Positions 11,701 to 62,514 of a DNA stretch of 64,000 bases are shown in pieces. Position 1 is the stretch's first letter, and every line of letters begins with the position of its first letter. The position numbers and the translations under genes are program-made. The notes under the pieces were generated by a model that was not told where the DNA came from, made no database searches, and saw nothing but the letters and a program-made list of their open reading frames with translations. The stretch comes from Candidatus Uhrbacteria bacterium. GTDB taxonomy: Bacteria; Patescibacteriota; Patescibacteriia; UBA9934. The stretch lies in assembly GCA_943359525.1 (NCBI GenBank), contig CALRHV010000001.1, forward strand, positions 82,195-146,194, written 5' to 3'.

Positions 11701-12504
11701 CTACCCCAAAAGTCCGAAGTACCAGGAAACTACCGAGTTTCCAAAAAAGAGGGCGATGATGGTGCCGATGACCATGAAGGTTCCAAACGGGACGTGGCTG
11801 CGGAGGTCGCGGCGACGGAAGAAGATGAGGTAAATACCGAGAATGGCGCCGATGGCGTAGGCGGTGAGAAGGGCAAAGATGCCGAGCTCGGGGCCGAGGA
11901 GGAAACCCATCACCATCGCCAAGCGAATATCTCCCCCACCAACCCATGTTCCGCGAGAAGCAATATATTGCACTGCAAAAAATGATCCAAGAAGAAATCC
12001 GCCGAGCAGCATCGTCAACGGATCAACACCCATCACTGCGTTCAATGAAAGCGCGATGATCATTGCCGGAACAGAGAGACGATCCGGAATAATGCTCGCG
12101 CGATAATCGAACATGAAAATCGGCAAGAGCAGCATTGCAAGCAAGCCGTTGCGAAGGAACAACCCCATTGCATCTGATGCGTCGCGAGCGAAGTATGGGA
12201 TGTTCGAGTCTTGTGTAACGATTTGATACGCGAATCCCATGAACAAAAGCATCATGGCGATTTCAAGCACGGGATACTGCCAAGGAATCACGGTTTTGCA
12301 CGCACGACACTTTGCCTGAAGCACCAGATAACTCACCAGTGGAAAATGATCCTTGGCATGCATCGGCCTGGCGCACGTCACGCACTTTCGTCGACCAGCG
12401 GTAAATCGCAATCCATCTGGCGTGCGCAACATGAAAATGTTCACGAATGCTCCGCACACTAAGCCGAGAACTCCCGCAACCACGATGATAGGAAACAATG
12501 GCAT
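11701..12504 (-). CDS. pilD: type IV prepilin peptidase (A24 family)
   Basis: 267 aa; N-terminal tetracysteine zinc site CVTC...CRAC followed by polytopic membrane peptidase and methyltransferase regions. Confidence 0.85.
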   Translation of the reverse strand: MPLFPIIVVAGVLGLVCGAFVNIFMLRTPDGLRFTAGRRKCVTCARPMHAKDHFPLVSYLVLQAKCRACKTVIPWQYPVLEIAMMLLFMGFAYQIVTQDSNIPYFARDASDAMGLFLRNGLLAMLLLPIFMFDYRASIIPDRLSVPAMIIALSLNAVMGVDPLTMLLGGFLLGSFFAVQYIASRGTWVGGGDIRLAMVMGFLLGPELGIFALLTAYAIGAILGIYLIFFRRRDLRSHVPFGTFMVIGTIIALFFGNSVVSWYFGLLG

Positions 12505-12507
12505 AGA

Positions 12508-12993
12508 TTAGAGCGCGGCGCAGGTGCCGGTTTTAAATCCGTTTTCGCTTAAACAATCGAGCCCCTTCGCCACACCAAGCAACGAATTCCCCCCTTCAAG
12601 CTCGAACTGAATGCGATACGAATCTGCGGTTCCACTGTAACAATACACATCACTCACCCCACCACAAACTACTAATCCATCAATTCCCGCTGACGGCGGA
12701 GTCGTCACAACGGACAGATACGGCGTTGGGCCGTTGAGCGAACATGGTGCAGCGAATCCTTCTGGTGATAAACATGCAGTGAGCGCTTGTCCAAGCGGAA
12801 TCGCCTCGGCAGCGATTGGATATGCGCTGTGATTTTGGAAATACATCTCCAACGCCATCTGCAATTCGCGCACATTCGCAAGCCGCGTCACGTCGCGAGT
12901 ATGGCTTCGGGCCGACAGCACGGCGTAACCCGACACAAGACCGATCACACCAATAATTGCGGCCATGATAAGGATTTCTGCGGTTCGTGTCAT
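12508..12993 (-). CDS. type IV pilin-like (pseudopilin-like) protein
   Basis: 161 aa; hydrophobic prepilin-type N-terminal helix with Glu (MTRTAEILIMAAIIGVIGLV), but no canonical Gly-Phe cleavage site; lies between pilM and pilD. Confidence 0.5.
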   Translation of the reverse strand: MTRTAEILIMAAIIGVIGLVSGYAVLSARSHTRDVTRLANVRELQMALEMYFQNHSAYPIAAEAIPLGQALTACLSPEGFAAPCSLNGPTPYLSVVTTPPSAGIDGLVVCGGVSDVYCYSGTADSYRIQFELEGGNSLLGVAKGLDCLSENGFKTGTCAAL

Positions 12994-13373
12994 AGGAGAA
13001 TGATGTTATGAAGCCGCTCTGCCACGCTTCGCGGTGTACTATGTGTTGTAAGAATAATATCATCTGCACCGGCCTTGTGCAGCGCCGCAACAAAAACGCT
13101 GCTTGCCTTCTTTGTAAATACAACGAGATGAAGCGACTTCATGGTTGGCTGTTTGTGCAGTGCGCGAACGTGCGCTACCACATCGTCGTCAGTTCCAACG
13201 CTCCCAGCATCAATCACGAGAAGCGCCGCATGAAGACGAAGCGCGCGACGTTCAAACTCCGCTATTTCCGGCACAAGAACCACCTTCGCAAAGCGTTCAA
13301 GATGACGTTCGTATACCGCGCCAAGAGCAGTATGCGTCGTCACCAACACGATAGTTGGCTTTACGTTGACCAT
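12990..13373 (-). CDS. hypothetical protein (weak resemblance to a CheY-like receiver fold)
   Basis: 127 aa; alternating beta/alpha pattern with a conserved Asp in LLVIDAGS and Lys in FTKK; sits in the pil cluster with 4-nt overlaps. Confidence 0.35.
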   Translation of the reverse strand: MVNVKPTIVLVTTHTALGAVYERHLERFAKVVLVPEIAEFERRALRLHAALLVIDAGSVGTDDDVVAHVRALHKQPTMKSLHLVVFTKKASSVFVAALHKAGADDIILTTHSTPRSVAERLHNIILL

Positions 13374-13378
13374 ATCGT

Positions 13379-14491
13379 TTACTTTTCTTTCTCCGCCACC
13401 ACACGCATAGCCAAACCAATCGCCACAGCGAGACGGCTTCCCACTTCATCAAGGACAGCGCGAGACTCTGGTGGCGTTGCAATTCGAGCCCACGGATCGC
13501 CGATGTATACATTCATGTTCAACGTGCTTGTCATCGCCGCATCAATCCCGGCAAGCGCTGCAGAACCACCGGTCAAAATCACCTTATCAACCGGTTTCGG
13601 CTGCTGCGTATTTTCCTGAAGGTTGATGTCGAGCGCGTACCTTACCTCATGCAGCAGCGGCTTGATTGCCGCAAGAATGGCTGGAGGCATCGTTGCTCCA
13701 GTGCCAAGCGCCAAGTCTTTTTTCGTTGCCTCTGCTTCCGGCAAGCCAATGCTCATTGCGCCAGAAAGCGCCTGAGTCACCGCGCCACCACCGGATTTAA
13801 TTCCGCGAGTAAGATATGGCACGCCTCGCTCTGCAATAAGAATATTCGTTCGATCGCCACCAATATCCACAATCATCGTTTTTGCGTTGTCCTTCCCGAT
13901 CAATGATCGCATCAACGCGAACACCTCGGTTTCCAATGAAATCAACTCGATCTTTGCGAGCGCGAACACGGCAAGATACTTTTCAACGAGCGCTTTTGGC
14001 GCCGCCGTCACCTGCACGCGAACGGTCTTTGCTTTTGATTCGGTAGCATCGCCTTCCTTTGGCAAGAAATCCTTGTCGATGATGTACGAATCGATGATCA
14101 TCTCCGCAACCGGCAATGGCAACAACTTCCCCGCCTGTGTCTCCACTAATGGACGGATATCTTCTTTGGCTGACTTTGGCGCGGGAATACTAATAATTGC
14201 GTGAAACACACTTTGTGCCGGCAACGATGCAACAGCCTTCGTCGCCTTCATGCCGCTTGCCTTGATAATGCCGCACAGCACCTGCGCAAGCTTCTTTGGC
14301 TCATCGATCGAAAGCGCCGACGCATCGCCGCCATATGGAATATCCGCGTAGCCGTATGTGATCAATCGAATACGACCAGCGTCTGGCGCAAGCTCGACGA
14401 CCTTTAAACCCGTCGTTCCAAGATCCACGCCAAGTAACGCCTGAGAGACTTCCTCTTTTTTTGTTCCAAACATATAGGGAAAGTATAGCAC
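13379..14491 (-). CDS. pilM: type IV pilus assembly protein PilM (actin-like ATPase)
   Basis: 370 aa; N-terminal GVDLGTTGLKVVEL and a second GGDRTNI phosphate-binding motif. Confidence 0.85.
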   Translation of the reverse strand: MLYFPYMFGTKKEEVSQALLGVDLGTTGLKVVELAPDAGRIRLITYGYADIPYGGDASALSIDEPKKLAQVLCGIIKASGMKATKAVASLPAQSVFHAIISIPAPKSAKEDIRPLVETQAGKLLPLPVAEMIIDSYIIDKDFLPKEGDATESKAKTVRVQVTAAPKALVEKYLAVFALAKIELISLETEVFALMRSLIGKDNAKTMIVDIGGDRTNILIAERGVPYLTRGIKSGGGAVTQALSGAMSIGLPEAEATKKDLALGTGATMPPAILAAIKPLLHEVRYALDINLQENTQQPKPVDKVILTGGSAALAGIDAAMTSTLNMNVYIGDPWARIATPPESRAVLDEVGSRLAVAIGLAMRVVAEKEK

Positions 14492-14509
14492 GCAGCCGCA
14501 ACTCCTCGA

Positions 14510-14938
14510 TTATCGACGCACATTAATGGCATCCAGCGTCTGATTCACCAACGCGTCGGCAGCGGTGTTTTGTTCGCGGAACACATGGGAGAATGTTGCC
14601 TTTATGAATTTCGTGCGGAGATTGTGAACCTCGAGGAACCGTTTAGCGATTTCTGGATTCTTCACGCGATAGATACCGTTGATCTGTTTCACGGCGAGCT
14701 CGGAGTCTAACCGCACATCGATTTCTTCGTATCCAAGATCGAGCGCCTTCTGCAAGCCGACAATGATGCCGGTGTACTCGGCTTGATTGTTCGTATCAAT
14801 GCCGATGTACTTCGCGGCATCACCAACGCGTTCGCCCTGTTCGCCACTCGCCGATAGCGCAAACAACACCGCAGCCCCAGCAGCAGGCCCTGGATTTCCT
14901 CGCGAGCCGCCATCTGCGTACATTCTTACTCTTTTCAT
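14510..14938 (-). CDS. rnhA: ribonuclease HI
   Basis: YADGGSRGNPGPAAGA... with the catalytic DEDD layout; the start ATG overlaps the recJ stop as ATGA. Confidence 0.8.
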   Translation of the reverse strand: MKRVRMYADGGSRGNPGPAAGAAVLFALSASGEQGERVGDAAKYIGIDTNNQAEYTGIIVGLQKALDLGYEEIDVRLDSELAVKQINGIYRVKNPEIAKRFLEVHNLRTKFIKATFSHVFREQNTAADALVNQTLDAINVRR

Positions 14939-16656
14939 AATCGAATATCTACAATGCGACATTGTACATCCTTTCGTCCGTTCCATTCGTTGATTCCCGG
15001 TTCATACGCGATATCAATTTGTCTTCCTCGAGTCAGTGCTTCCGCTTTATCACCCATCCCAAATCCCACCATCTTACAAACCTTCCCAGCGTCATCGAGC
15101 ACGGTGAGTCGCAGATGAGCTCCCGTCGCGCCCATCGTTTCCGCGACCATGACCGTAAGCTTCAACGCGGCGAACACTGGTGAACGGTTTCCCTCTCCAA
15201 ACGGTGCGCAAACATTCAGTTCGCCGATTCCGTCGATCGTGAATGTAGACGGAGTAACGATCGCGTCGATCGGCAGCGTGACCGACGGTCCATTTGGGCC
15301 GAACTTTGATCGCGCAAACGCATTCATCTGTGTTCGAAATTCGTGAACGTCGTCCATCGATCGAACTGATAATCCGCATGCTTGAGGATGCCCGCCTTTC
15401 TTAAGGAAAATATCGCCGCACGCATTCATCGCCTCGACGAGATGCAAACCACCGGCGGTGCGGCCACTTCCCACGTAATGATCACCAACTTTCGTGAGTG
15501 CAAATGCCGACAACGCAAAATCGTTAACGAGACGGCCGGCAATGAGGCCAACAATTCCCGGCAACCACGCGTCACTTGCGACGACGAGGACGTTGCATTG
15601 ATCGTCGATCATGGACTTCGCGATGGCCTCAGCCTCTTTGTACGAATCTTTAAAGATCGACTGGCGTTCTTTATTGAGTGATTCAAGCTTTGTTGCAGCG
15701 ACCTCGGCAGCCTCCGCGGTCTGTGCCGTGAGCGTATCGAATGCGAGCTTCGCGCTCGACAATCGCCCCGCAGCGTTCAAACGAGGTCCGATCCTAAATC
15801 CAATCGCAGTCGTGTCGATGGAACCAAGATCGGTTCCAGACATCGTCAGCATCGCGCGTAATCCAGGTCGGCGAGTCTTGTTCAATACTTGCAATCCAAA
15901 TGTTTCGAGCACGCGGTTTTCACCAAGAATCGGCATCACATCGGTGACGGTTGCGATTGCCACAAAATCGAGAAACCATTTTTCATATCCTTCCGGAATG
16001 TCAGCGCCCCGATTCCGAGCCTCGTGAATCAGCCCCGATGCAAACTTGAACGCAACACCCGTTCCGCACAGCGTTTTATTGGAGTACGTCTCCCCCGGTG
16101 CCAACGGATGGAGCACGATTGCGTGATGAGGAAAATGGGTGCCCATCTGGTGGTGATCGCACACAATCACATCGATTCCCCCTTCGAATGCCCGATCGAG
16201 CTCTAATCCATTCGCGATTCCGCAATCGACGGTGACAAGGAGTTTTTTCTTTTCATCGATCAAGCGCTCGATGGTATGCATCGCGACACCGTATCCGTCT
16301 TTCTCGCGATCGGGAAGAAATACTTCGACGTTAAATGTAAACGACATCTTCTCGGTGATGTACCGCAACGCTTCGAACAACAACGCCGATCCAGAAACAC
16401 CGTCAGCATCGTAATCGCCGTGAATAACAATCGCGTCACCACGCTCCAGTGCGCCGAACATCGCGGCAACCGCCTTTGTCATCTGCGTAAAATCAAACGG
16501 TGAAAACGTATCGCGTGCCCAGTCAGGATTCAAAAAATGATCGCGGTGCTCCATCGCAACCCCACGATTCACCAAAAGCTGCGAAACAAGGTTCTCCTCG
16601 CTCCGCGGCGCAATATTCCAGGCAATCGTCGCCACACTAAAATCCGAACTGGCCAA
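14935..16656 (-). CDS. recJ: single-stranded-DNA-specific exonuclease
   Basis: 573 aa; DHH motifs (HGDYDADGVSG, VCDHHQ) and DHHA1 region. Confidence 0.9.
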   Translation of the reverse strand: MASSDFSVATIAWNIAPRSEENLVSQLLVNRGVAMEHRDHFLNPDWARDTFSPFDFTQMTKAVAAMFGALERGDAIVIHGDYDADGVSGSALLFEALRYITEKMSFTFNVEVFLPDREKDGYGVAMHTIERLIDEKKKLLVTVDCGIANGLELDRAFEGGIDVIVCDHHQMGTHFPHHAIVLHPLAPGETYSNKTLCGTGVAFKFASGLIHEARNRGADIPEGYEKWFLDFVAIATVTDVMPILGENRVLETFGLQVLNKTRRPGLRAMLTMSGTDLGSIDTTAIGFRIGPRLNAAGRLSSAKLAFDTLTAQTAEAAEVAATKLESLNKERQSIFKDSYKEAEAIAKSMIDDQCNVLVVASDAWLPGIVGLIAGRLVNDFALSAFALTKVGDHYVGSGRTAGGLHLVEAMNACGDIFLKKGGHPQACGLSVRSMDDVHEFRTQMNAFARSKFGPNGPSVTLPIDAIVTPSTFTIDGIGELNVCAPFGEGNRSPVFAALKLTVMVAETMGATGAHLRLTVLDDAGKVCKMVGFGMGDKAEALTRGRQIDIAYEPGINEWNGRKDVQCRIVDIRL

Positions 16657-28130: not shown

Positions 28131-28219
28131 GTCATCCCCGCGGCCTGTCCCCCGGAGGGGGAAGGCGGGGATCCATCATTCCGAACGATCTGGATCCCCG
28201 CCTACGCGGGGATGACCAG
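28131..28219. repeat. composite of two GTCATCCCCGCG...GGGGATCC hairpin repeats (family i)
   Basis: GTCATCCCCGCGGCC-[CCCCCGGAGGGGG]-GGCGGGGATCC, then CTGGATCCCCGCCTACGCGGGGATGACCAG. Confidence 0.8.
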
Positions 28220-29124: not shown

Positions 29125-31953
29125 CTATTTCCCACAACACTTCTTAAACTTCTTTCCACTTCCGCAATGACATGGTTCGTTTGGTCGAGGTTTTTTGGAG
29201 GAATCGCTCTGGATCCCCGCCTGTGCGGGGATGACTGAGCCGGATGGGATGACGGAGTCTAAAGGAGCAACGGCAGGATTTGATTCTGCCTTCTCCGCCG
29301 GCACATCGATCACCGTTGTTCCGCCACTGGATTGCTGCGATAAAAACTGCACCGCGTTGCGCATGAGTTGAGGAGCGGTTTCCATGATGTGCTTTGCGGC
29401 GAGATGTTGGTCGATGATTTTGAAGAGGTTGTACGAAACTTCGCGGCCGAGTTCGGAACGCATCGTGTTGTAGAGGCGATACGATTCGCGCTTGTATTCA
29501 ACAAGAGGATCACGCTGGGCGTAACCTTGCAACCCGATGGTACGGCGCAAGTAGGTCATGTCGTCCAAGTGCTGCATCCACAGCGTGTCGTTGGCGCGCA
29601 ACAAAATATTACGCTCAAGCGCCATAAGGTGTTTTGCATCACCAAACTTTTCAATAGCACCATCGTATGCACGACGAATTGCGCCGTTGACGATCTCGAT
29701 GACGTGGCTGCGTTGATACGCAAGATTTTCTTTGTCGATCGAAAGCGTCGAAAGTTCTTCACGAATCGCAGTCGATTCCCCGTCCTCGAGTTTCACGATC
29801 GTGCTGAGGCTTTCAACAATTTCTTGCGGATCCCAATCTGGCTTGCCCGCCTCGTCTTCTACGAAATCCTTCGGCACGTCGGCTTCCGCCTTGCTCGTGT
29901 GAAAGAACACCACACGTTCGATTTCTTTTTCAACAATTGAGTGCACGAGTTCATGCGCTTTCTCCTCATTCTTCATGACCTCTTTGCGTTCGTTGTACAC
30001 GGCAGTGCGATGCTTATTCAGCACGTCGTCGTATTCCAACACGTGTTTACGTGTGTCGAAGTGATGACCTTCCACACGCTGCTGCGATTTCTCAAGCGCC
30101 TTTGTGACCATCTTGCTTTCGATTGGTGTTGCATCGTCAATACCGAGTTTGTCCATCATACCTTTCACACGATCGCTTCCGAAGATACGCATCAAGTCGT
30201 CGTCGAGTGACACAAAGAACTGCGTGCTACCAGGATCACCTTGGCGACCAGCGCGTCCACGGAGCTGATTGTCGATGCGACGTGATTCGTGGCGTTCGGT
30301 GCCGATCACGTGCAAACCACCGAGCTTCTTTACCTCGTCCGCCATTGCCGCATCCACTGGGTTTCCACCAAGCAAAATGTCCACACCACGCCCAGCCATG
30401 TTTGTGGCAAGTGTTACCGCGCCACGTCGTCCAGCCTGTGCGATAATTTCGCCTTCACGTTCGTGGTTCTTTGCGTTGAGTGTGTTGTGAATAACGCCAG
30501 CCGCAGTAAGAAACTTTGAGAGCGCTTCGTTCTTGTCGATCGACACGGTTCCGATGAGGACTGGCTGACCGATCTCGTTCAAACGCTTCACTTCTTCAAC
30601 AACCGCCATCCACTTTCCCATTTCATTCTTGTAAATGCGATCTGGTAAATCCTTACGACGCGCTTCGTGATTGGTTGGAATAGTGACAACGTCGAGTTTA
30701 TAAATCTTCGCGAATTCCTCGGCTTCCGTGCTCGCCGTTCCGGTCATACCAGAAAGCTTCTCGTACATGCGGAAATAATTCTGGAACGTAATCGTTGCGA
30801 GCGTCTTGCTCTCGCGCTGAATTTTCACACCTTCCTTTGCCTCAATCGCTTGGTGCAAACCCTCCGAATATCGACGGCCTTCCATGATGCGACCAGTGAA
30901 TTCATCAACAATCAATACTTCGCCAGTGCGAACGACGTAGTCACGATCGATCTTAAACAACGAGTGTGCTTTCAATGCCTGCTCGGCGTGATGAACCATC
31001 GCAAGTCCTTCTTCGTAAATATTTTTCACGTTGAGTAAGCGCTCCAACTTTTGCAAGCCGTTTTCCGTGAACGTTGAAACGCGCATCTTCTCGTCGATAT
31101 TAAAATCTTCGCCCTCAACACAATTCCTGATGACGTCGGCGAATCGATAATACAGATCTGTCGATTCTTGCGCCGCAGCAGAAATAATCAACGGTGTACG
31201 TGCTTCGTCGATGAGAATTGAGTCGACCTCGTCCACAATAGCGTAATGCAAACCGCGCTGCACAACGTCCTCGGCACGACTCGCCATGTTGTCGCGTAAG
31301 TAATCGAAACCGAATTCATTGTTCGTACCGTACGTAATGTCGGCAGCATACGCTTGAGATCGGCTCACTGGACGCAACGAATCGGATGCGACGTGGAAAC
31401 CAGCAACAGTCTCCGCGCCTTCTGCTGGTGTCTCCACCTTAAAATCTGCGTCGTAAATATATCCACTTTCGTGCTGAATACACGCGACGGTTAAACCAAG
31501 CGACGCAAACACACGGCCCATCCACACAGAGTCGCGCTTTGCCAAATAGTCGTTCACCGTCACAAGGTGAACACCTTTTCCGGTGAGTGCGTTGAGATAC
31601 GTCGGCGCAGTTGCCGTGAGCGTCTTTCCCTCACCGGTTCGCATTTCCGCGATTGCTCCACGATGCAACGAAAGTCCGCCCATCATTTGCACATCAAAAT
31701 GACGTTGACCGAGTACGCGCTTACTCGCTTCACGAACAACAGCAAACGCCTCGTGCGCCATAGAATCAAGCGTCTCCCCGTTCGCGAGCCTTTCGCGGAA
31801 CGTCTGCGTCTTTGCTTTCAGCTCTTCTGCAGACAACGCTTTCAGTCCTTCCTCGAGTGCTGCAATTTTTTCAGCATCCTTCTTAAGATTCTTAACAACT
31901 TTTGCGTTTGGATCACCGAAAATCGTGGAAAGAGAGAAGGCCATAGATGGCAA
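29125..31953 (-). CDS. secA: preprotein translocase ATPase SecA; its C-terminal linker carries an in-frame insertion of a family (i) repeat
   Basis: 942 aa; DEAD-like motor, PPXD, HSD/HWD domains and a C-terminal zinc motif CHCGSGKKFKKCC; residues SVIPSGSVIPAQAGIQ are encoded by the repeat at 29209..29253. Confidence 0.95.
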   Translation of the reverse strand: MPSMAFSLSTIFGDPNAKVVKNLKKDAEKIAALEEGLKALSAEELKAKTQTFRERLANGETLDSMAHEAFAVVREASKRVLGQRHFDVQMMGGLSLHRGAIAEMRTGEGKTLTATAPTYLNALTGKGVHLVTVNDYLAKRDSVWMGRVFASLGLTVACIQHESGYIYDADFKVETPAEGAETVAGFHVASDSLRPVSRSQAYAADITYGTNNEFGFDYLRDNMASRAEDVVQRGLHYAIVDEVDSILIDEARTPLIISAAAQESTDLYYRFADVIRNCVEGEDFNIDEKMRVSTFTENGLQKLERLLNVKNIYEEGLAMVHHAEQALKAHSLFKIDRDYVVRTGEVLIVDEFTGRIMEGRRYSEGLHQAIEAKEGVKIQRESKTLATITFQNYFRMYEKLSGMTGTASTEAEEFAKIYKLDVVTIPTNHEARRKDLPDRIYKNEMGKWMAVVEEVKRLNEIGQPVLIGTVSIDKNEALSKFLTAAGVIHNTLNAKNHEREGEIIAQAGRRGAVTLATNMAGRGVDILLGGNPVDAAMADEVKKLGGLHVIGTERHESRRIDNQLRGRAGRQGDPGSTQFFVSLDDDLMRIFGSDRVKGMMDKLGIDDATPIESKMVTKALEKSQQRVEGHHFDTRKHVLEYDDVLNKHRTAVYNERKEVMKNEEKAHELVHSIVEKEIERVVFFHTSKAEADVPKDFVEDEAGKPDWDPQEIVESLSTIVKLEDGESTAIREELSTLSIDKENLAYQRSHVIEIVNGAIRRAYDGAIEKFGDAKHLMALERNILLRANDTLWMQHLDDMTYLRRTIGLQGYAQRDPLVEYKRESYRLYNTMRSELGREVSYNLFKIIDQHLAAKHIMETAPQLMRNAVQFLSQQSSGGTTVIDVPAEKAESNPAVAPLDSVIPSGSVIPAQAGIQSDSSKKPRPNEPCHCGSGKKFKKCCGK
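29209..29253. repeat. family (i) hairpin repeat inside the secA coding sequence
   Basis: CTGGATCCCCGCCTGTGCGGGGATGAC plus TGAGCCGGATGGGATGAC; the secA frame reads through it as VIPAQAGIQ. Confidence 0.85.
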
Positions 31954-32232: not shown

Positions 32233-32637
32233 CTATGGCTTCGCTGATCGACCCCCTCTATCTCCCCCTTGAAAAGGGGGAGGACATGAGGCTGCAATCT
32301 GAAGAAGAACGCCGTCCAAATTTCTCATCACATCATTATTCGTGAATCGAAGGATTCGAAAATCAAGACCGATTAAATATGCAGTGCGTTCTGCATCGTA
32401 AACCAACCCTTCTCGAGTAAAATGAGAATCTCCATCAACCTCAATCACTATACGATGCATCGGCGAACAGAAATCAACAATAAAAGATCCAATTCCAAAT
32501 TGACGGCGAAACTTTATCCCAAGAGTGCCGTTTCGTAATTCTTTCCAAAGTATTCTTTCTGGTATTGTCATGCTTCCGCGAAGATTTCTCCGACGTTCAA
32601 TGCTCCACGCAGGATTAAATAGCTTCGTCATACACAC
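32233..32637 (-). CDS. DUF559 (Vsr-like endonuclease fold) domain protein in an AT-rich insert
   Basis: ERILWKELRN...FRRQ..IG.FIVDF......VIEVDG.SH layout; the body is AT-rich relative to the flanks; the C-terminus runs into a G5 hairpin repeat. Confidence 0.6.
   Translation of the reverse strand: MCMTKLFNPAWSIERRRNLRGSMTIPERILWKELRNGTLGIKFRRQFGIGSFIVDFCSPMHRIVIEVDGDSHFTREGLVYDAERTAYLIGLDFRILRFTNNDVMRNLDGVLLQIAASCPPPFQGGDRGGRSAKP
32252..32283. repeat. G5/C5 hairpin repeat (family iii)
   Basis: CCCCCTCTATCTCCCCCTTGAAAAGGGGGAGG. Confidence 0.8.
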
Positions 32638-32640
32638 CCC

Positions 32641-32738
32641 CTCCTTACTCCCCCTTGAAAAGGGGGAGGGACATAAACTAAACCGAACGTAGCCCCACTT
32701 ATTCCTCTCCCCCTTTTCAAGGGGGAGTCGGAGGGGGT
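32641..32738. repeat. two further family (iii) hairpins in tandem
   Basis: CTCCCCCTTGAAAAGGGGGAGGG ... CTCCCCCTTTTCAAGGGGGAG ... GGAGGGGGTC. Confidence 0.8.
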
Positions 32739-38397: not shown

Positions 38398-38448
38398 CGT
38401 CTAACCTACGAGAGATGGTTACTGGATCCCCGCCTTCGCGGGGATGAC
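38398..38448. repeat. chimeric family (ii)/(i) hairpin repeat between convergent folD and uvrA
   Basis: CTAACCTACGAGAGAT (a family ii arm fragment) followed by CTGGATCCCCGCCTTCGCGGGGATGACTGA. Confidence 0.8.
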
Positions 38449-40974: not shown

Positions 40975-40983
40975 AGTGGTGTT

Positions 40984-43095
40984 TTACGTTCTCCGAGATC
41001 GTTTTTCCTTCTTTCCCTTCTTCATTCCCAACAGCTCCTTGCTCAACAACGCGATCTCGTCTCGCAGAATCGCCGCAGTCTCGAACAACAGGTTCGCCGA
41101 CGCTTTGTCCATTTCAATCTCCTTCTCACGAATTGCTTCTTCAATCTCAACCGGGGTCGCGCTGATTTCGATGTTCAGAATCTTCGAGGTGTCGGCTTCG
41201 AAGTTTCTGTCGAGTTCTGCGCGAATGTCTTTAATCGTTTTAATGATCGTCTGCGGCGTGATGCTGTGTTTGACGTTGTGTGCAATTTGGATGTTGCGAC
41301 GACGTTCGGTTTCTTTCAGCGCCCTGTCGAGCGATCCCGTCATCTTGTCGGCATACAGAACGACCAAGCCGTTGATGTTTCGCGCAGCACGACCGATGGT
41401 TTGAATGAGCGAGGTTTCCGATCGCAGGAAGCCTTCCTTGTCCGCGTCGAGCACGCCGATGAGTGACACCTCAGGAAGATCGAGCCCCTCACGAAGCAAG
41501 TTCACTCCGACGACAACGTCGTATGTTCCCTTTCGCAACTCAGTGAGAATCGTAATCCGATCGAGCGTTTCGACATCGGAATGGAGATACGCCACTTTCA
41601 TGCCGCCTTCTTTCAGGTACGCTGTTAAATCCTCGGCCATCTTTTTTGTGAGCGTGGTGACGAGTGCGCGTTCGCCTTTGGTGACACGATCTTTGATGCG
41701 TTCGGTGATGTCGGAGACTTGGCCGGGGAAGCCCCCTCCAACTCCCCCATAAATGGGGGAGAGGTTATCACCGAGCGGCCCCCCTCCATTTATGGAGGGG
41801 CTGGGGGAGGCGAGCGTCGCCGTCACCGGCAATACCAATGTCTCTGGGTCGACTAAACCGGTTGGACGAATGATTTGCTCAACAATCTGCTCCGATGTTT
41901 CTTTTTCGACGACTCCCGGTGTTGCAGATACGTACACGGTTTGACCGATCGTTTTATCGAACTCTTGGTACGTAAGCGGTCGATTATCCTTCGCCGATGG
42001 GAGACGGAAACCGAAATCAACGAGCGTTTGTTTTCGCGCCTGATCACCAGCGAACATTCCGCCAATCTGTGGGAGCGTGACGTGTGATTCGTCGATGATG
42101 GTAAGAAAATCTTTCGGAAAGTATGACAGCAACGTGTGTGCCGGTTCACCAACACGACGTCCATCAAAGTGACGTGAATAGTTTTCAATACCACTGCAAT
42201 ACCCAACGTTCCGAATCATCTCGATATCGTATCGCGTTCGTCGCATGAGGCGCTCCGATTCTAAAAGCTTCCCTTCTTTCTCGAACTCCCTCAAACGATC
42301 CGCGAGCTCGTTCTCGATGTCGCGAATTGCCCGTTCACGCTCGGCGCTATCGGACATGAAATGCTTCGCCGGAAAGAACCACGCGTCCTCGTTCTGTGTG
42401 ATGATCTTTCGCGTAACCTTATTCAACGAAAAAATCTCACGCACCGCGTTTCCTTCAATCACAATCCGATACACGATTTCATCACTCGGCGGCATGACTT
42501 CGATAACGTCGCCATTTGCGCGAAAGTGGCCACGAGTAAGATCGGCATTCGTGCGTTCGTACTGCATCGAAACAAGCTGACGAAGAAAGTCTGCACGATC
42601 GATCCGGTCGCCGACTCGCATATGAAGCACCTCGCGTTTGTATGCTTCCGGCGAACCTAATCCATAAATACAGCTCACCGAGGCAACGACGATCACATCG
42701 CGACGGGATAAAAGAGATTGCGTTGCGGCATGGCGAAGGCGATCGATCTCCTCGTTGATCTGCGCGTCCTTCTCAATATACGTGTCTGTTCGCGGCATGT
42801 ACGCCTCTGGCTGGTAGTAGTCGTAATACGAAACGAAGTAGGAAACGGCATTGTCAGGAAAAAACTCGCGGAACTCGGAACAGAGCTGCGCGGCGAGGGT
42901 TTTGTTGTGCGCAATCACCAACGTTGGCTTCTGCACATTTTGAATAACATTCGCCATGGTAAACGTCTTTCCCGAACCCGTCACCCCAAGCAACGTCTGC
43001 CGATGCAAGCCGTCGTTGATGCCGTCCGTCAGATCGGCAATGGCTTTCGGCTGATCACCGGCTGGAGAATATTTTGAGACGAGATTGAAGGGCAT
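40984..43095 (-). CDS. uvrB: excinuclease ABC subunit B with an in-frame insertion of a G5-hairpin repeat
   Basis: Walker A GVTGSGKT, DESH, helicase C domain; the stretch LASPSPSINGGGPLGDNLSPIYGGVGGGFPG after RPTG is encoded by the repeat at 41731..41810; start taken at MPFNL (43095). Confidence 0.9.
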   Translation of the reverse strand: MPFNLVSKYSPAGDQPKAIADLTDGINDGLHRQTLLGVTGSGKTFTMANVIQNVQKPTLVIAHNKTLAAQLCSEFREFFPDNAVSYFVSYYDYYQPEAYMPRTDTYIEKDAQINEEIDRLRHAATQSLLSRRDVIVVASVSCIYGLGSPEAYKREVLHMRVGDRIDRADFLRQLVSMQYERTNADLTRGHFRANGDVIEVMPPSDEIVYRIVIEGNAVREIFSLNKVTRKIITQNEDAWFFPAKHFMSDSAERERAIRDIENELADRLREFEKEGKLLESERLMRRTRYDIEMIRNVGYCSGIENYSRHFDGRRVGEPAHTLLSYFPKDFLTIIDESHVTLPQIGGMFAGDQARKQTLVDFGFRLPSAKDNRPLTYQEFDKTIGQTVYVSATPGVVEKETSEQIVEQIIRPTGLVDPETLVLPVTATLASPSPSINGGGPLGDNLSPIYGGVGGGFPGQVSDITERIKDRVTKGERALVTTLTKKMAEDLTAYLKEGGMKVAYLHSDVETLDRITILTELRKGTYDVVVGVNLLREGLDLPEVSLIGVLDADKEGFLRSETSLIQTIGRAARNINGLVVLYADKMTGSLDRALKETERRRNIQIAHNVKHSITPQTIIKTIKDIRAELDRNFEADTSKILNIEISATPVEIEEAIREKEIEMDKASANLLFETAAILRDEIALLSKELLGMKKGKKEKRSRRT
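41731..41810. repeat. family (iii) G5/C5 hairpin repeat inside the uvrB coding sequence
   Basis: CCCCCTCCAACTCCCCCATAAATGGGGGAGAGG...CCCCTCCATTTATGGAGGGGCTGGGGGAGG: two palindromic hairpins. Confidence 0.85.
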
Positions 43096-43174
43096 ACATC
43101 TGTGGATTATTTCATTGACGAAAAACGGTATCTCTAGTATATTCTTTGTATTCACCAAGAAAGAGACCCTTATA

Positions 43175-51865: not shown

Positions 51866-52130
51866 ATTTTGGGGTTTTAAAAAGGGGCGATAGAACGTGT
51901 TGTGATGCTGTAATCAATGAAAAGCGAAATCGATTTCAAAATGCGTGACCGGCGATCGGAGACGGCTTCATCGCGAGCCGAACGGATCGTCAATATGAGC
52001 CAGTGCTTCCTTAACGCGAAACTTTCGCATTAGCAAAACACCCTGTTTGAAATCGAATGCCCCCGCTCTCGACAATCGTGTTTGTGATCATCACTCCCGC
52101 CACATCCATCCAAGATCAGTTCAGGCCTTC
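51866..52130. repeat. copy 2 of the conserved ~270-nt duplicated non-coding element, abutting the topIB stop codon
   Basis: See copy 1 (10788..11080). Confidence 0.7.
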
Positions 52131-53120
52131 CAACACCTTCATCAACCCAACTTCATGAACGTGGAGTAATGGATATTTCTTTCGCAATGATTCATTCGGA
52201 GCGTGCCAGGTGAGCTTTCCTTTGGCGTAGAGCGAAAGCACTTTCGGATGAATATAGGATTTTTTGCAGACGACGACGGTGTTGCCGAGGGCATCTGCAG
52301 CGCGTTGAATCGCGGCTTTCACATTCTGTTGTATTTCTCGTTTCGTCTCAACGGCCGGCCGATCCCAAAGATACGACGCGACGATGACGGTGCCGTGCCA
52401 GGTACGAAAATCTTTGGCGGTAATCTCTTCCTTCGAAATCGATTTCAGATACTCGTTGACGTCTTCCGATTGGACATCATGCGGCTTACCCTCGTGATCG
52501 AGATACTCAAAAAGCTTCTGTCCAGGAATATCGTGGCACGTTGCGACGATCTTCCGGATTCGCTCATCCTCGATGGGAAATTCGTGCGCGATCCCATCCT
52601 TCCCATCGAACGCAAGTCCCATGTACTCCCCCGTTCCCTTCACGTGCCGATTCCGCAACGTCGTCAAACCGAATGAGTGATTATCTTTCGCATACTCCTC
52701 ATTGCCGATGCGAATGAATGCCGTATCTAATAGCTCAACGATCGCTGCGAGCACCTTGTCTTTTGGTATCCCTCGAAGGCGCAAGTCGTGATCAACTCGA
52801 CGACGAATGCGGGAGAGCGATACCGCAAACTCGTTCATCCGATGAAACTTCCCCTCATTCTGCTTCGCGATCCAGTCGTGATGATAGATGTATTGTTTTC
52901 TATTTCGCGCGTCGATCGCCGTTGCTTGAATATGGCCGTTTGCAAACGGGCAGATCCACACGCTGGAATACGCCGGAGGAATGCCAAGGGAACGAATGCG
53001 AGCCAAAACGTTTGCGTTTCGGATCTTTCGTCCCTTTTCGTCGCGATATACCACACCAAACCAACCCTTTGTTCGGGTAAAGCCGGGAATCGTATCAATC
53101 ACGTATCGGAGTCGCATCAC
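52116..53120 (-). CDS. DNA topoisomerase IB (poxvirus-like bacterial TopIB)
   Basis: 334 aa; catalytic-domain layout with the active-site Tyr in KKSYIHP near the C-terminus and conserved Arg/Lys/His positions. Confidence 0.75.
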   Translation of the reverse strand: MMRLRYVIDTIPGFTRTKGWFGVVYRDEKGRKIRNANVLARIRSLGIPPAYSSVWICPFANGHIQATAIDARNRKQYIYHHDWIAKQNEGKFHRMNEFAVSLSRIRRRVDHDLRLRGIPKDKVLAAIVELLDTAFIRIGNEEYAKDNHSFGLTTLRNRHVKGTGEYMGLAFDGKDGIAHEFPIEDERIRKIVATCHDIPGQKLFEYLDHEGKPHDVQSEDVNEYLKSISKEEITAKDFRTWHGTVIVASYLWDRPAVETKREIQQNVKAAIQRAADALGNTVVVCKKSYIHPKVLSLYAKGKLTWHAPNESLRKKYPLLHVHEVGLMKVLEGLN

Positions 53121-62402: not shown

Positions 62403-62514
62403 GTCATCCCCGCGCAGGCGGGGATCCAGAGTGTTCTGAATGAAGATCGTGTCAGTATTCATCCCAAAAATTCTTCAATGTATTCTGGATCCCCGCCTGC
62501 GCGGGGATGACCAG
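62403..62514. repeat. inverted pair of family (i) repeats with a 55-nt spacer
   Basis: GTCATCCCCGCGCAGGCGGGGATCCAG at 62403..62429 and CTGGATCCCCGCCTGCGCGGGGATGACCAG at 62485..62514. Confidence 0.85.

Follow-up and report, generated by a model that had tools for sequence, protein, structure and literature searches.

Triplex-type hairpin motifs inserted in frame in uvrB of an Uhrbacteria bacterium, and related motifs around DUF559 genes

Known repeat families and the uvrB element

The uvrB gene encoded in a 64,000-nucleotide stretch of a Candidatus Uhrbacteria genome (assembly GCA_943359525.1, contig CALRHV010000001.1; hereafter, the window) contains in frame an 81-bp element composed of an inverted pair of G/C-rich hairpin motifs (41731..41811). 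This element very probably represents a gene-less pair of triplex-type motifs that was copied into a tolerant loop of UvrB, or replaced an earlier insert there, and that persists as a neutral in-frame passenger. The closest described repeats are the BoxC, PIT, or triplex motifs (TM), which have been reported from Escherichia coli since the 1990s and for which, to our knowledge, no origin, mobility mechanism, or partner protein is known. BoxC, later PIT elements, the subject of earlier work by Bachellier/Hofnung and Hoyne/Maher, were re-examined under the name TMECO by Holder et al. (2015, NAR 43:10126, PMC4666352, where the earlier work is cited), who define a triplex motif as three consecutive blocks, namely a pyrimidine stem, its purine complement, and a purine block mirroring the latter, separated by loops of 1-6 nt. 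The TMECO pattern (CCCTCNCCC N3-6 GGGNGAGGG N3 GGGNGAGGG) occurs in 23 copies in E. coli K-12, always intergenic, and in 3,610 copies in 262 proteobacterial genomes, and is reported to be missing from Salmonella; its stems are more conserved than its loops, five loci carry two inverted motifs on opposite strands, and TMECO-bearing loci show raised sequence variability, with no transposase or integrase nearby (PMC4666352). Two other kinds of short repeats invite comparison: the RPEs, small palindromic repeats described in PMC10969869 as lying in frame in housekeeping genes at fold-compatible positions (Ogata et al. 2000, Science 290:347), and the REP and REPIN sequences with their RAYT transposases (Nunvar et al. 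2010, PMC2817692; Bertels and Rainey 2011, PMC3116915).

Both units of the uvrB element consist of a hairpin followed by a third block. Motif 1 (41732..41761, minus strand, which is the coding strand of uvrB) reads CTCCCCC ATTTAT GGGGGAG TT G GAGGGGG and includes the hairpin CTCCCCCATAAATGGGGGAG (41742-41761), and motif 2 (41781..41810, plus strand) reads CCCCTCC ATTTAT GGAGGGG CT G GGGGAGG and includes the hairpin CCCCTCCATTTATGGAGGGG (41781-41800), both hairpins being self-complementary 20-mers with a 9-bp stem and a 2-nt centre. The pattern CTCCCCC-N(2-12)-GGGGGAG matches four times in the window and CCCCTCC-N(2-12)-GGAGGGG once, against 0.00 expected for either in 100 dinucleotide-preserving shuffles; the two perfect palindromes that the original prediction had placed inside uvrB were thereby located, none being expected by chance. 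The window has no general excess of such structures (41 perfect hairpins versus 21-41 in Markov simulations), and two families alone stand out. The plus strand of the whole element is GCCCCCTCCAACTCCCCCATAAATGGGGGAGAGGTTATCACCGAGCGGCCCCCCTCCATTTATGGAGGGGCTGGGGGAGGC; the coding strand reads CCTCCCCC AG CCCCTCC ATAAAT GGAGGGG, then a 19-nt spacer (41762..41780, GGCCGCTCGGTGATAACCT), and then CTCCCCC ATTTAT GGGGGAG TT GGAGGGGG. The block outside each hairpin mirrors the purine arm and does not copy the stem (GGGGGAG followed by GAGGGGG and, on the opposite strand, GGAGGGG followed by GGGGAGG). This third, mirror-repeat block on each hairpin identifies the units as intrastrand-triplex (BoxC/PIT/TM) motifs instead of plain hairpins. 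Their loops (6 nt for loop 1, 2-3 nt for loop 2) conform to the definition of a G/C-rich class II motif. Judged from its sequence, the insert is a pair of G/C-rich class II (C-G-G) purine-motif intrastrand triplex motifs in inverted configuration, one unit per strand, in the order C-third, C-stem, loop, G-stem, spacer, C-stem, loop, G-stem, G-third. A strict search for the three blocks (pyrimidine stem, complementary purine stem, and mirror purine block of 7 nt, with no mismatch) retrieved both uvrB units and all three units flanking a DUF559 gene elsewhere in the window, that is, five in 64 kb, whereas 486,608 nt of control loci yielded none. No Rfam family was recovered over 28-44 kb (E up to 5), just sub-threshold microRNA-hairpin look-alikes.

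The two hairpins are contained in a larger imperfect inverted repeat (29-nt arms at 41731-41759 and 41783-41811, 79% complementary). As DNA the element is predicted to form two local hairpins, and the coding-strand RNA a single long one (-62.8 kcal/mol, z = -3.1), both predictions covering Watson-Crick and wobble pairs only. Its GC content is 65%, versus 52% for the uvrB gene.

With BoxC, PIT, and TMECO repeats, the element shares the three blocks, conserved stems and variable loops, the inverted doublets, the multiple copies in many bacteria, and the variable host loci. Unlike TMECO, its blocks are CTCCCCC/GGGGGAG (7-8 nt) instead of the 9-nt CCCTCNCCC/GGGNGAGGG, which leaves it outside the TMECO consensus, its host belongs to the Patescibacteria, and the copy lies inside a coding sequence and is translated, departing from the intergenic rule. 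It most readily fits the same class as TMECO, as a different subfamily. A further difference is that no mobility gene was associated with Holder's TMECO, whereas the DUF559 gene of the window is flanked by motifs. The likeness to RPEs (in-frame palindromic insertion at fold-compatible sites, followed by translation) is functional only: RPEs are described as ~100-150 bp, AT-rich, and restricted to Rickettsia, whereas this 81-bp element is of the G/C-run triplex type and belongs to a family found in many phyla. As in REPINs, an inverted doublet of short palindromes folds as one long hairpin, and, as in the REPIN-RAYT system, many dispersed copies contrast with one or few copies of a repeat-flanked nuclease-type gene. 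The flanked gene is nevertheless a PD-(D/E)XK (Vsr-like) DUF559 nuclease, with no Y1/HUH transposase among the 61 window open reading frames (ORFs), and the unit ends (CCTCCCCC... and ...GGAGGGGG) lack the GTAG/CGTC terminal tetranucleotide that, as quoted from Di Nocera et al. (2013), characterizes REPs; REPs are also usually lineage-specific and extragenic, unlike the family of the uvrB element. [quoted passage not shown] We know of no DDE transposase partner for a triplex-type element. The repeat class is already known, and its behaviour is like that of the RPE-type in-frame palindromes. By contrast, we did not find its coding location, its Patescibacteria host and recurrent UvrB site, or the DUF559 association in the literature searched. 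Nothing relevant appeared there on intragenic repeats in the Candidate Phyla Radiation (CPR)/Patescibacteria, and, judged from titles and abstracts, no publication linked DUF559 to repeats.

An in-frame insert at a recurrently occupied site of UvrB

The uvrB coding sequence (40984..43095, minus strand) specifies an annotated product of 703 aa, within an ORF that reaches 43158 (40984..43158, 724 codons). This product contains the UvrB_inter, UvrB, Helicase_C, ResIII, and UVR Pfam domains, matches the UvrB chains of the PDB (phmmer, E=6e-242), and is 100% identical to the protein P0001. The element encodes residues A429-G455 (ASPSPSINGGGPLGDNLSPIYGGVGGG) and is translated in the uvrB frame as ...PVTATLASPSPSINGGGPLGDNLSPIYGGVGGGFPGQV..., precisely the peptide announced by the original prediction. 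It is free of stop codons in three of the six combinations of frame and orientation, so that a length multiple of three and one of three open phases suffice to keep the UvrB reading intact. Since G-runs, C-runs, and palindromes are error-prone in short-read assembly, we considered an assembly or sequencing artefact, which we regard as extremely improbable: an identical 703-aa protein with the insert is encoded on two further contigs (ENA ERZ27280328 k141_61044 and NCBI GCA_943356565.1 CALRFL010000049.1, which are different records, not necessarily independent read sets), related inserts occupy the same site in assemblies from unrelated samples, and the reading frame is intact.

The nearest orthologues (P0003 and P0006, 92% identity) provide the empty site. 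Between the anchors RPTGLVDP and TTLTKK, they have a segment of 50 residues with the loop PVTQTADFPGQ, compared with 76 residues in the window UvrB, and at the DNA level the window has a net 78 additional nucleotides with cleanly aligning flanks, in agreement with the in-frame insertion first read from the window sequence. The alignment with PDB UvrB chains is unbroken apart from query residues 425-456, which have no counterpart (in 9gy7_E, query residues 424 and 457 pair with chain residues 427 and 428). An AlphaFold2 model built from 66 orthologues (mean pLDDT 79.5) has residues 430-454 as coil with pLDDT <50, flanked by a strand (418-422) and a helix (459-472) that are both modelled with confidence. 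The model thus depicts the insert as a disordered Gly/Pro/Ser-rich surface loop of UvrB domain 3, joining its first beta-strand to its first helix, the surface location for which a structure prediction had been suggested as a check. The earlier placement of the insert directly after RPTG(L) is slightly inexact: it lies 13 residues beyond RPTGLVDP, at the turn corresponding to the second RPT-KGQ of Bacillus.

Of the internal indel sites in the clade, this loop is the principal one. In a MAFFT alignment of the 120 best uvrB orthologues (counting inserts of >=5 residues), 47 carry inserts after residue 427 of P0006, compared with 8 and 7 at the internal sites that rank next. Of 80 UvrB loci that are more distant (51-62% identity, obtained by a metagenome contig scan and serving as a background set unfit for close comparison), 66 have the canonical 44-residue segment and two have large inserts. 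The occupants of the loop are diverse: a single triplex motif in L003 (CTCCCCCTTACGAAGGGGGAGTCGGAGGGGG), a nested version of the triplex motif in L208, a decayed long hairpin in L207, and in L206, L209, and L215 an unrelated hairpin, ATCCCCGC-N4-GCGGGGAT. A third hairpin family was observed in the UvrB loop of P0011 (protein only) and L126, from other Patescibacteria (peptides SRHCEEGGPDEAI, PPVIARSGATKQS, and VIARSGATKQS; DNA GTCATTGCGAGGAGCGGAGCGACGAAGCAATC). By sequence comparison, at least three unrelated hairpin families have filled the site. Unrelated loops of equivalent length in orthologues, which had been named as grounds for dismissing the insertion, do exist in some of the more distant ones, because the site is a long-lived insertion hot spot; the insertion itself stands. 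A single UvrB loop acting as a clade-wide landing pad offers a natural system to study the turnover of structure-forming DNA within a gene and the origin of new protein loops.

The second family (GTCATCCCCGC-N4-GCGGGGATCCAG) that fills the loop in L206, L209, and L215 also has five copies in the window (28131-28216, 29213-29232, 38426-38445, and 62405-62513), which at 62.4 kb and 28.1 kb form inverted doublets between genes. The copy at 29213-29232 lies in frame in the C-terminal region of SecA (GSVIPAQAGIQ); it belongs to the ATCCCCGC-N4-GCGGGGAT family, different from that of the uvrB repeat, which corrects the original prediction of a second in-frame colonisation of a DNA-repair or secretion gene. 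At 28131-28175, a G-run hairpin (TCCCCCGGAGGGGGA) is nested in the loop of a second-family hairpin (GTCATCCCCGC, then GGCCTGTCCCCCGGAGGGGGAAG, then GCGGGGATCC), hinting that hairpins may themselves be insertion targets.

Empty and occupied alleles interleave inside the window's own clade (neighbour-joining ordering), and alleles with different hairpin cores share a flank encoding TAT(L/S)AS (ACG GCG ACG CTC GCC TCC in the window versus ACA GCT ACT TCG GCC TCC in the second-family alleles). This common prefix suggests that the site held an older insert whose core was later swapped. For this reason, we abandoned the idea that each occupied allele is an independent insertion. Of the independent in-frame colonisation proposed for uvrB, the in-frame insertion is retained and the independence is in doubt, as the shared prefix points to a possible replacement at an already occupied site. 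Such turnover fits the TM-linked local instability and partial deletions reported by Holder et al. (PMC4666352).

The shared flank, the nested hairpin within 28131-28216, and the fact that in L003, L206, and L209 the uvrB copy is the sole such hairpin in 6.5-22 kb could also indicate active targeting, in which a nuclease or recombinase would home the elements to the uvrB sequence or to any resident hairpin. We consider this rather doubtful. The loci fetched were picked for having inserts, an ascertainment bias that makes the scarcity of other copies merely suggestive; we saw no common target motif at other insertion sites; and one sequence-specific target for three unrelated families is improbable. 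Neither such a motif nor a target-site duplication was seen at uvrB, around 32.6 kb, or in 16 sites from Patescibacteria. A CCWGG (Vsr-like) site beside the empty uvrB site was examined as a candidate target and discarded because other insertion sites do not have it.

Alternatively, the hairpin or the loop it encodes might be selected for a function, either as an mRNA structure slowing ribosomes at the domain 1a/3 boundary or as a modulator of contacts with UvrA, UvrC, or DNA. The stability of the predicted transcript fold, the filling of the same inter-domain loop by sequence-unrelated hairpins in many lineages, and the retention of a conserved insert in some subclades (TPAAALKVDP..LHPNLSPDYP in P0029-P0048) would agree with it. 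However, in the closest relatives UvrB works with a loop that is empty (7 residues), 66 of the 80 more distant UvrB proteins have the short canonical one, the insert is predicted to be disordered, and the same motif occurs at arbitrary loops of many unrelated proteins. A selected function is accordingly quite unlikely in our opinion. We found no sign of a benefit of the insert to UvrB, to which the element is most likely of no use.

The junction between uvrB and uvrA, adjacent genes in the window (40975-40983), also varies among close relatives: L001 (12022-12450), L002, and L209 (5088-5516) have a PemK-family toxin gene there, and L206 has an 828-aa ORF (12140-14626) with no Pfam hit on record.

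Motif copies in other genomes and reading frames

The extended pattern CTCCCCC-N(4-9)-GGGGGAG-NN-GGAGGGG was found at >=120 loci of a species-representative genome collection, where we estimate ~2 by chance. Hosts among the matches listed are Gallionellaceae, Bacteroidales, Omnitrophota, Chloroflexota, Planctomycetota, and Myxococcota, together with many Patescibacteria and others. Of the 128 matches listed, about half lie in stop-free spans of >=250 codons, and the matches listed are depleted in long stop-free spans, with a median spanning ORF of 212 codons versus 446 at control positions. Several copies are located in frame in genes confirmed by Pfam: in uvrC (L035, 580-608) and the head domain of the CCA-adding enzyme (L091, 3803-3833) of Uhrbacterium, in a Patescibacteria PEP-utilising enzyme ahead of its mobile domain (L059, 1026-1055), twice in PheT of Andersenbacteria (L104, 1642-1671 and 2619-2648, in the B5 and FDX-ACB domains), and in a PD-(D/E)XK nuclease of Buchananbacteria (L092). 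Outside the Patescibacteria, they occur in the linker that joins the pterin-binding domain of a Prevotella MetH to its first B12-binding domain (B12-binding_2; L008, 3433-3461), in a GH18 domain of Bacteroidaceae (L043), and in a TonB-dependent receptor of Prevotella (L073). In addition, UvrA of L208 (3302-3318) has a 22-residue insert that includes a CCCCCTTGGAAAGGGGG hairpin. These Pfam-confirmed copies make translation inside genes a general property of the motif family. A class described as strictly intergenic is now observed in the frames of the essential genes uvrA, uvrB, uvrC, pheT, and that of the CCA-adding enzyme in Patescibacteria, with the Bacteroidales metH as a further example of a triplex-type repeat inside a reading frame. 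In practice, such inserts inflate loop lengths, generate Gly/Pro-rich segments annotated as 'low-complexity', and break metagenome assemblies. We also observed that in-frame G-run hairpin inserts are present in all three nucleotide-excision-repair genes, uvrA, uvrB, and uvrC, in one or another Uhrbacteria genome.

The wide occurrence of the motif bears on a possible origin of the palindromes in place, through slippage of replication or template switching acting on local sequence. The spacer has a 10/11-nt inverted match to nearby uvrB positions 41699-41709, and the lack of a target-site duplication is compatible with a local origin. Nevertheless, that match is by itself not significant (about the chance level in 250 nt), and the stems and mirror blocks are identical to the DUF559 flanks 9 kb away and to those of >120 loci elsewhere, which renders formation in place very unlikely.

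DUF559 genes flanked by the motif

In the window, a DUF559 gene (32233..32631, minus strand; Pfam E=7.5e-30) encodes a Vsr-like PD-(D/E)XK endonuclease of 132 aa (P0121), the C-terminal tail of which is hairpin-encoded. One triplex motif lies at its 3' end on the same strand (32252..32282, minus) and an inverted pair directly upstream (32637..32737, comprising units at 32637-32668 on the minus strand and 32707-32737 on the plus strand with a 38-nt spacer), all detected by the three-block search. The corresponding CTCCCCC...GGGGGAG hairpins (32262-82, 32648-68, and 32707-27) surround the Pfam-confirmed ORF, so that the hairpin family of uvrB does bracket this gene, as had been noticed from the sequence. 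The cassette has the order C-third, C-stem, loop, G-stem, DUF559, C-stem, loop, G-stem, G-third. The uvrB insert has the same layout with the gene replaced by the 19-nt spacer, and this shared layout suggests that the uvrB copy stands to the DUF559 cassette as a MITE or REPIN to its autonomous or partner element. In the related genome L001, the MurC-SecA interval is devoid of the DUF559 gene.

Inverted motifs also flank DUF559 at the orthologous locus of L207 (19842-20272), in the gammaproteobacterial metagenome-assembled genome L111 (49-494), in the complete genome of Marinomonas sp. GJ51-6 (L210), and in members of the Patescibacteria (L211) and Desulfuromonadales (L212), but were not found around DUF559 in L213. 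By sequence reading, about half of 57 DUF559 homologues end in hairpin-encoded peptides (PPPFQGG, LPLHKGESEGV, and LPPPWKGG). In an isolate sample of 12 replicons from five phyla, picked by tblastn protein match alone, C-run/G-run hairpins adjoin DUF559 in 10 of the 12 loci, usually on both sides and with reverse-complementary loops. Within 300 nt of DUF559 there are 22 in 8.28 kb, versus 34 in 112.8 kb for the remainder of these loci, and 18 of these 34 distal hairpins belong to arrays running on downstream of DUF559. In E. coli K-12 (L214, NC_000913.3), the DUF559 gene is ycjD (1351407-1351760, minus strand), and TMECO no. 9 in the Holder numbering (1351239-1351204, on the ycjD strand) lies 168 nt downstream of it; with 18 TMECO loci in 4.64 Mb, the chance of such closeness is roughly 0.002. 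The association between DUF559 and the hairpins looks real at the sequence level, the repeats wrapping this gene from E. coli to Deinococcus, cyanobacteria, and Patescibacteria. Since it includes ycjD and TMECO no. 9, the question of what moves or maintains the repeats can be addressed in E. coli K-12.

A functional partnership, in which the DUF559 nuclease would act on triplex-type hairpins for their copying, excision, or maintenance, is a tentative possibility, to which we give somewhat less than even weight. A requirement for DUF559 in cis was rejected, as just one of the 120 hairpin loci listed from other genomes has DUF559 within 8 kb and the association is seen only when starting from DUF559. 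Given this rarity, any link must act in trans, and the pattern is that expected of a low-copy partner with many dispersed non-autonomous copies, as for RAYTs and REPINs. By analogy, DUF559 may be the missing partner of the BoxC/PIT/triplex repeats, in a cross-phylum counterpart of the REPIN-RAYT system where the gene-less pairs would be non-autonomous derivatives. Were this true, such derivatives would spread, destabilize the loci that they occupy, and settle in frame in essential genes. No transposase, RAYT, or integrase was detected by Pfam among the 61 ORFs of the window, which covers 64 kb of the genome.

We infer the following course for the insertion in uvrB. The element would have been copied into the loop of UvrB domain 3, or would have replaced an earlier hairpin insert there, by a hairpin-dependent process such as template switching or gene conversion between copies, possibly begun by DUF559 nicking. 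Selection would retain only those arrivals that are multiples of three, stop-free, and located in tolerant loops, in this case translated as ~27 extra Gly/Pro/Ser-rich residues that would leave the UvrB fold intact. The site would recur because the loop is highly permissive and because resident hairpin or triplex DNA promotes further indels and replacement. Several points weigh against this interpretation. The neutrality of the loop for UvrB function is our deduction, no target-site duplication accompanies the element and no donor copy was found in the 64-kb window, and copy counts refer to these 64 kb instead of the whole genome. The shared TAT(L/S)AS prefix may reflect one old insertion with later turnover instead of many independent insertions. 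The scarcity of DUF559 near hairpin loci of other genomes is not what a partner in cis would produce, and the uvrB units have ATTTAT loops where the DUF559-flanking units in the window have TTGAAAA, so that the uvrB element is no recent copy of the latter. Moreover, Holder et al. found no evidence that even TMECO forms a triplex in vivo (PMC4666352).

Some further observations concern the DUF559 genes. Hairpin-bracketed DUF559 genes were seen in Proteobacteria, Deinococcota, Cyanobacteria, and Patescibacteria (including loci L216-L227), in some cases as cassettes inside operons, such as the one separating sufB from sufC in Sphingomonas and those within the hpa cluster of two Deinococcus species. 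At the 3' end of ycjD (L214, 4290-4470), ~55 nt are duplicated just past the stop codon (ATGGAGACGGTGCTGGAGAATATTC...CTGAACCG), the two copies being separated by a short C-run/G-run segment (CACCCTCTCCCTGAAAGAGCGAGGGGG); this looks like a gene end remodelled by insertion. The Uhrbacteria DUF559 protein is 57-58% identical to the Marinomonas isolate homologues P0126/P0127, and many DUF559 homologues are located on contigs <5 kb, both points being consistent with horizontal transfer and with assembly-breaking repeats. The window also encodes, unrelated to the uvrB element, a bacterial type IB topoisomerase with the Topoisom_I and Top1B_N_bact domains (52116-53120, minus strand) and a small RNase H / RVT_3 protein (14510-14986, minus strand).

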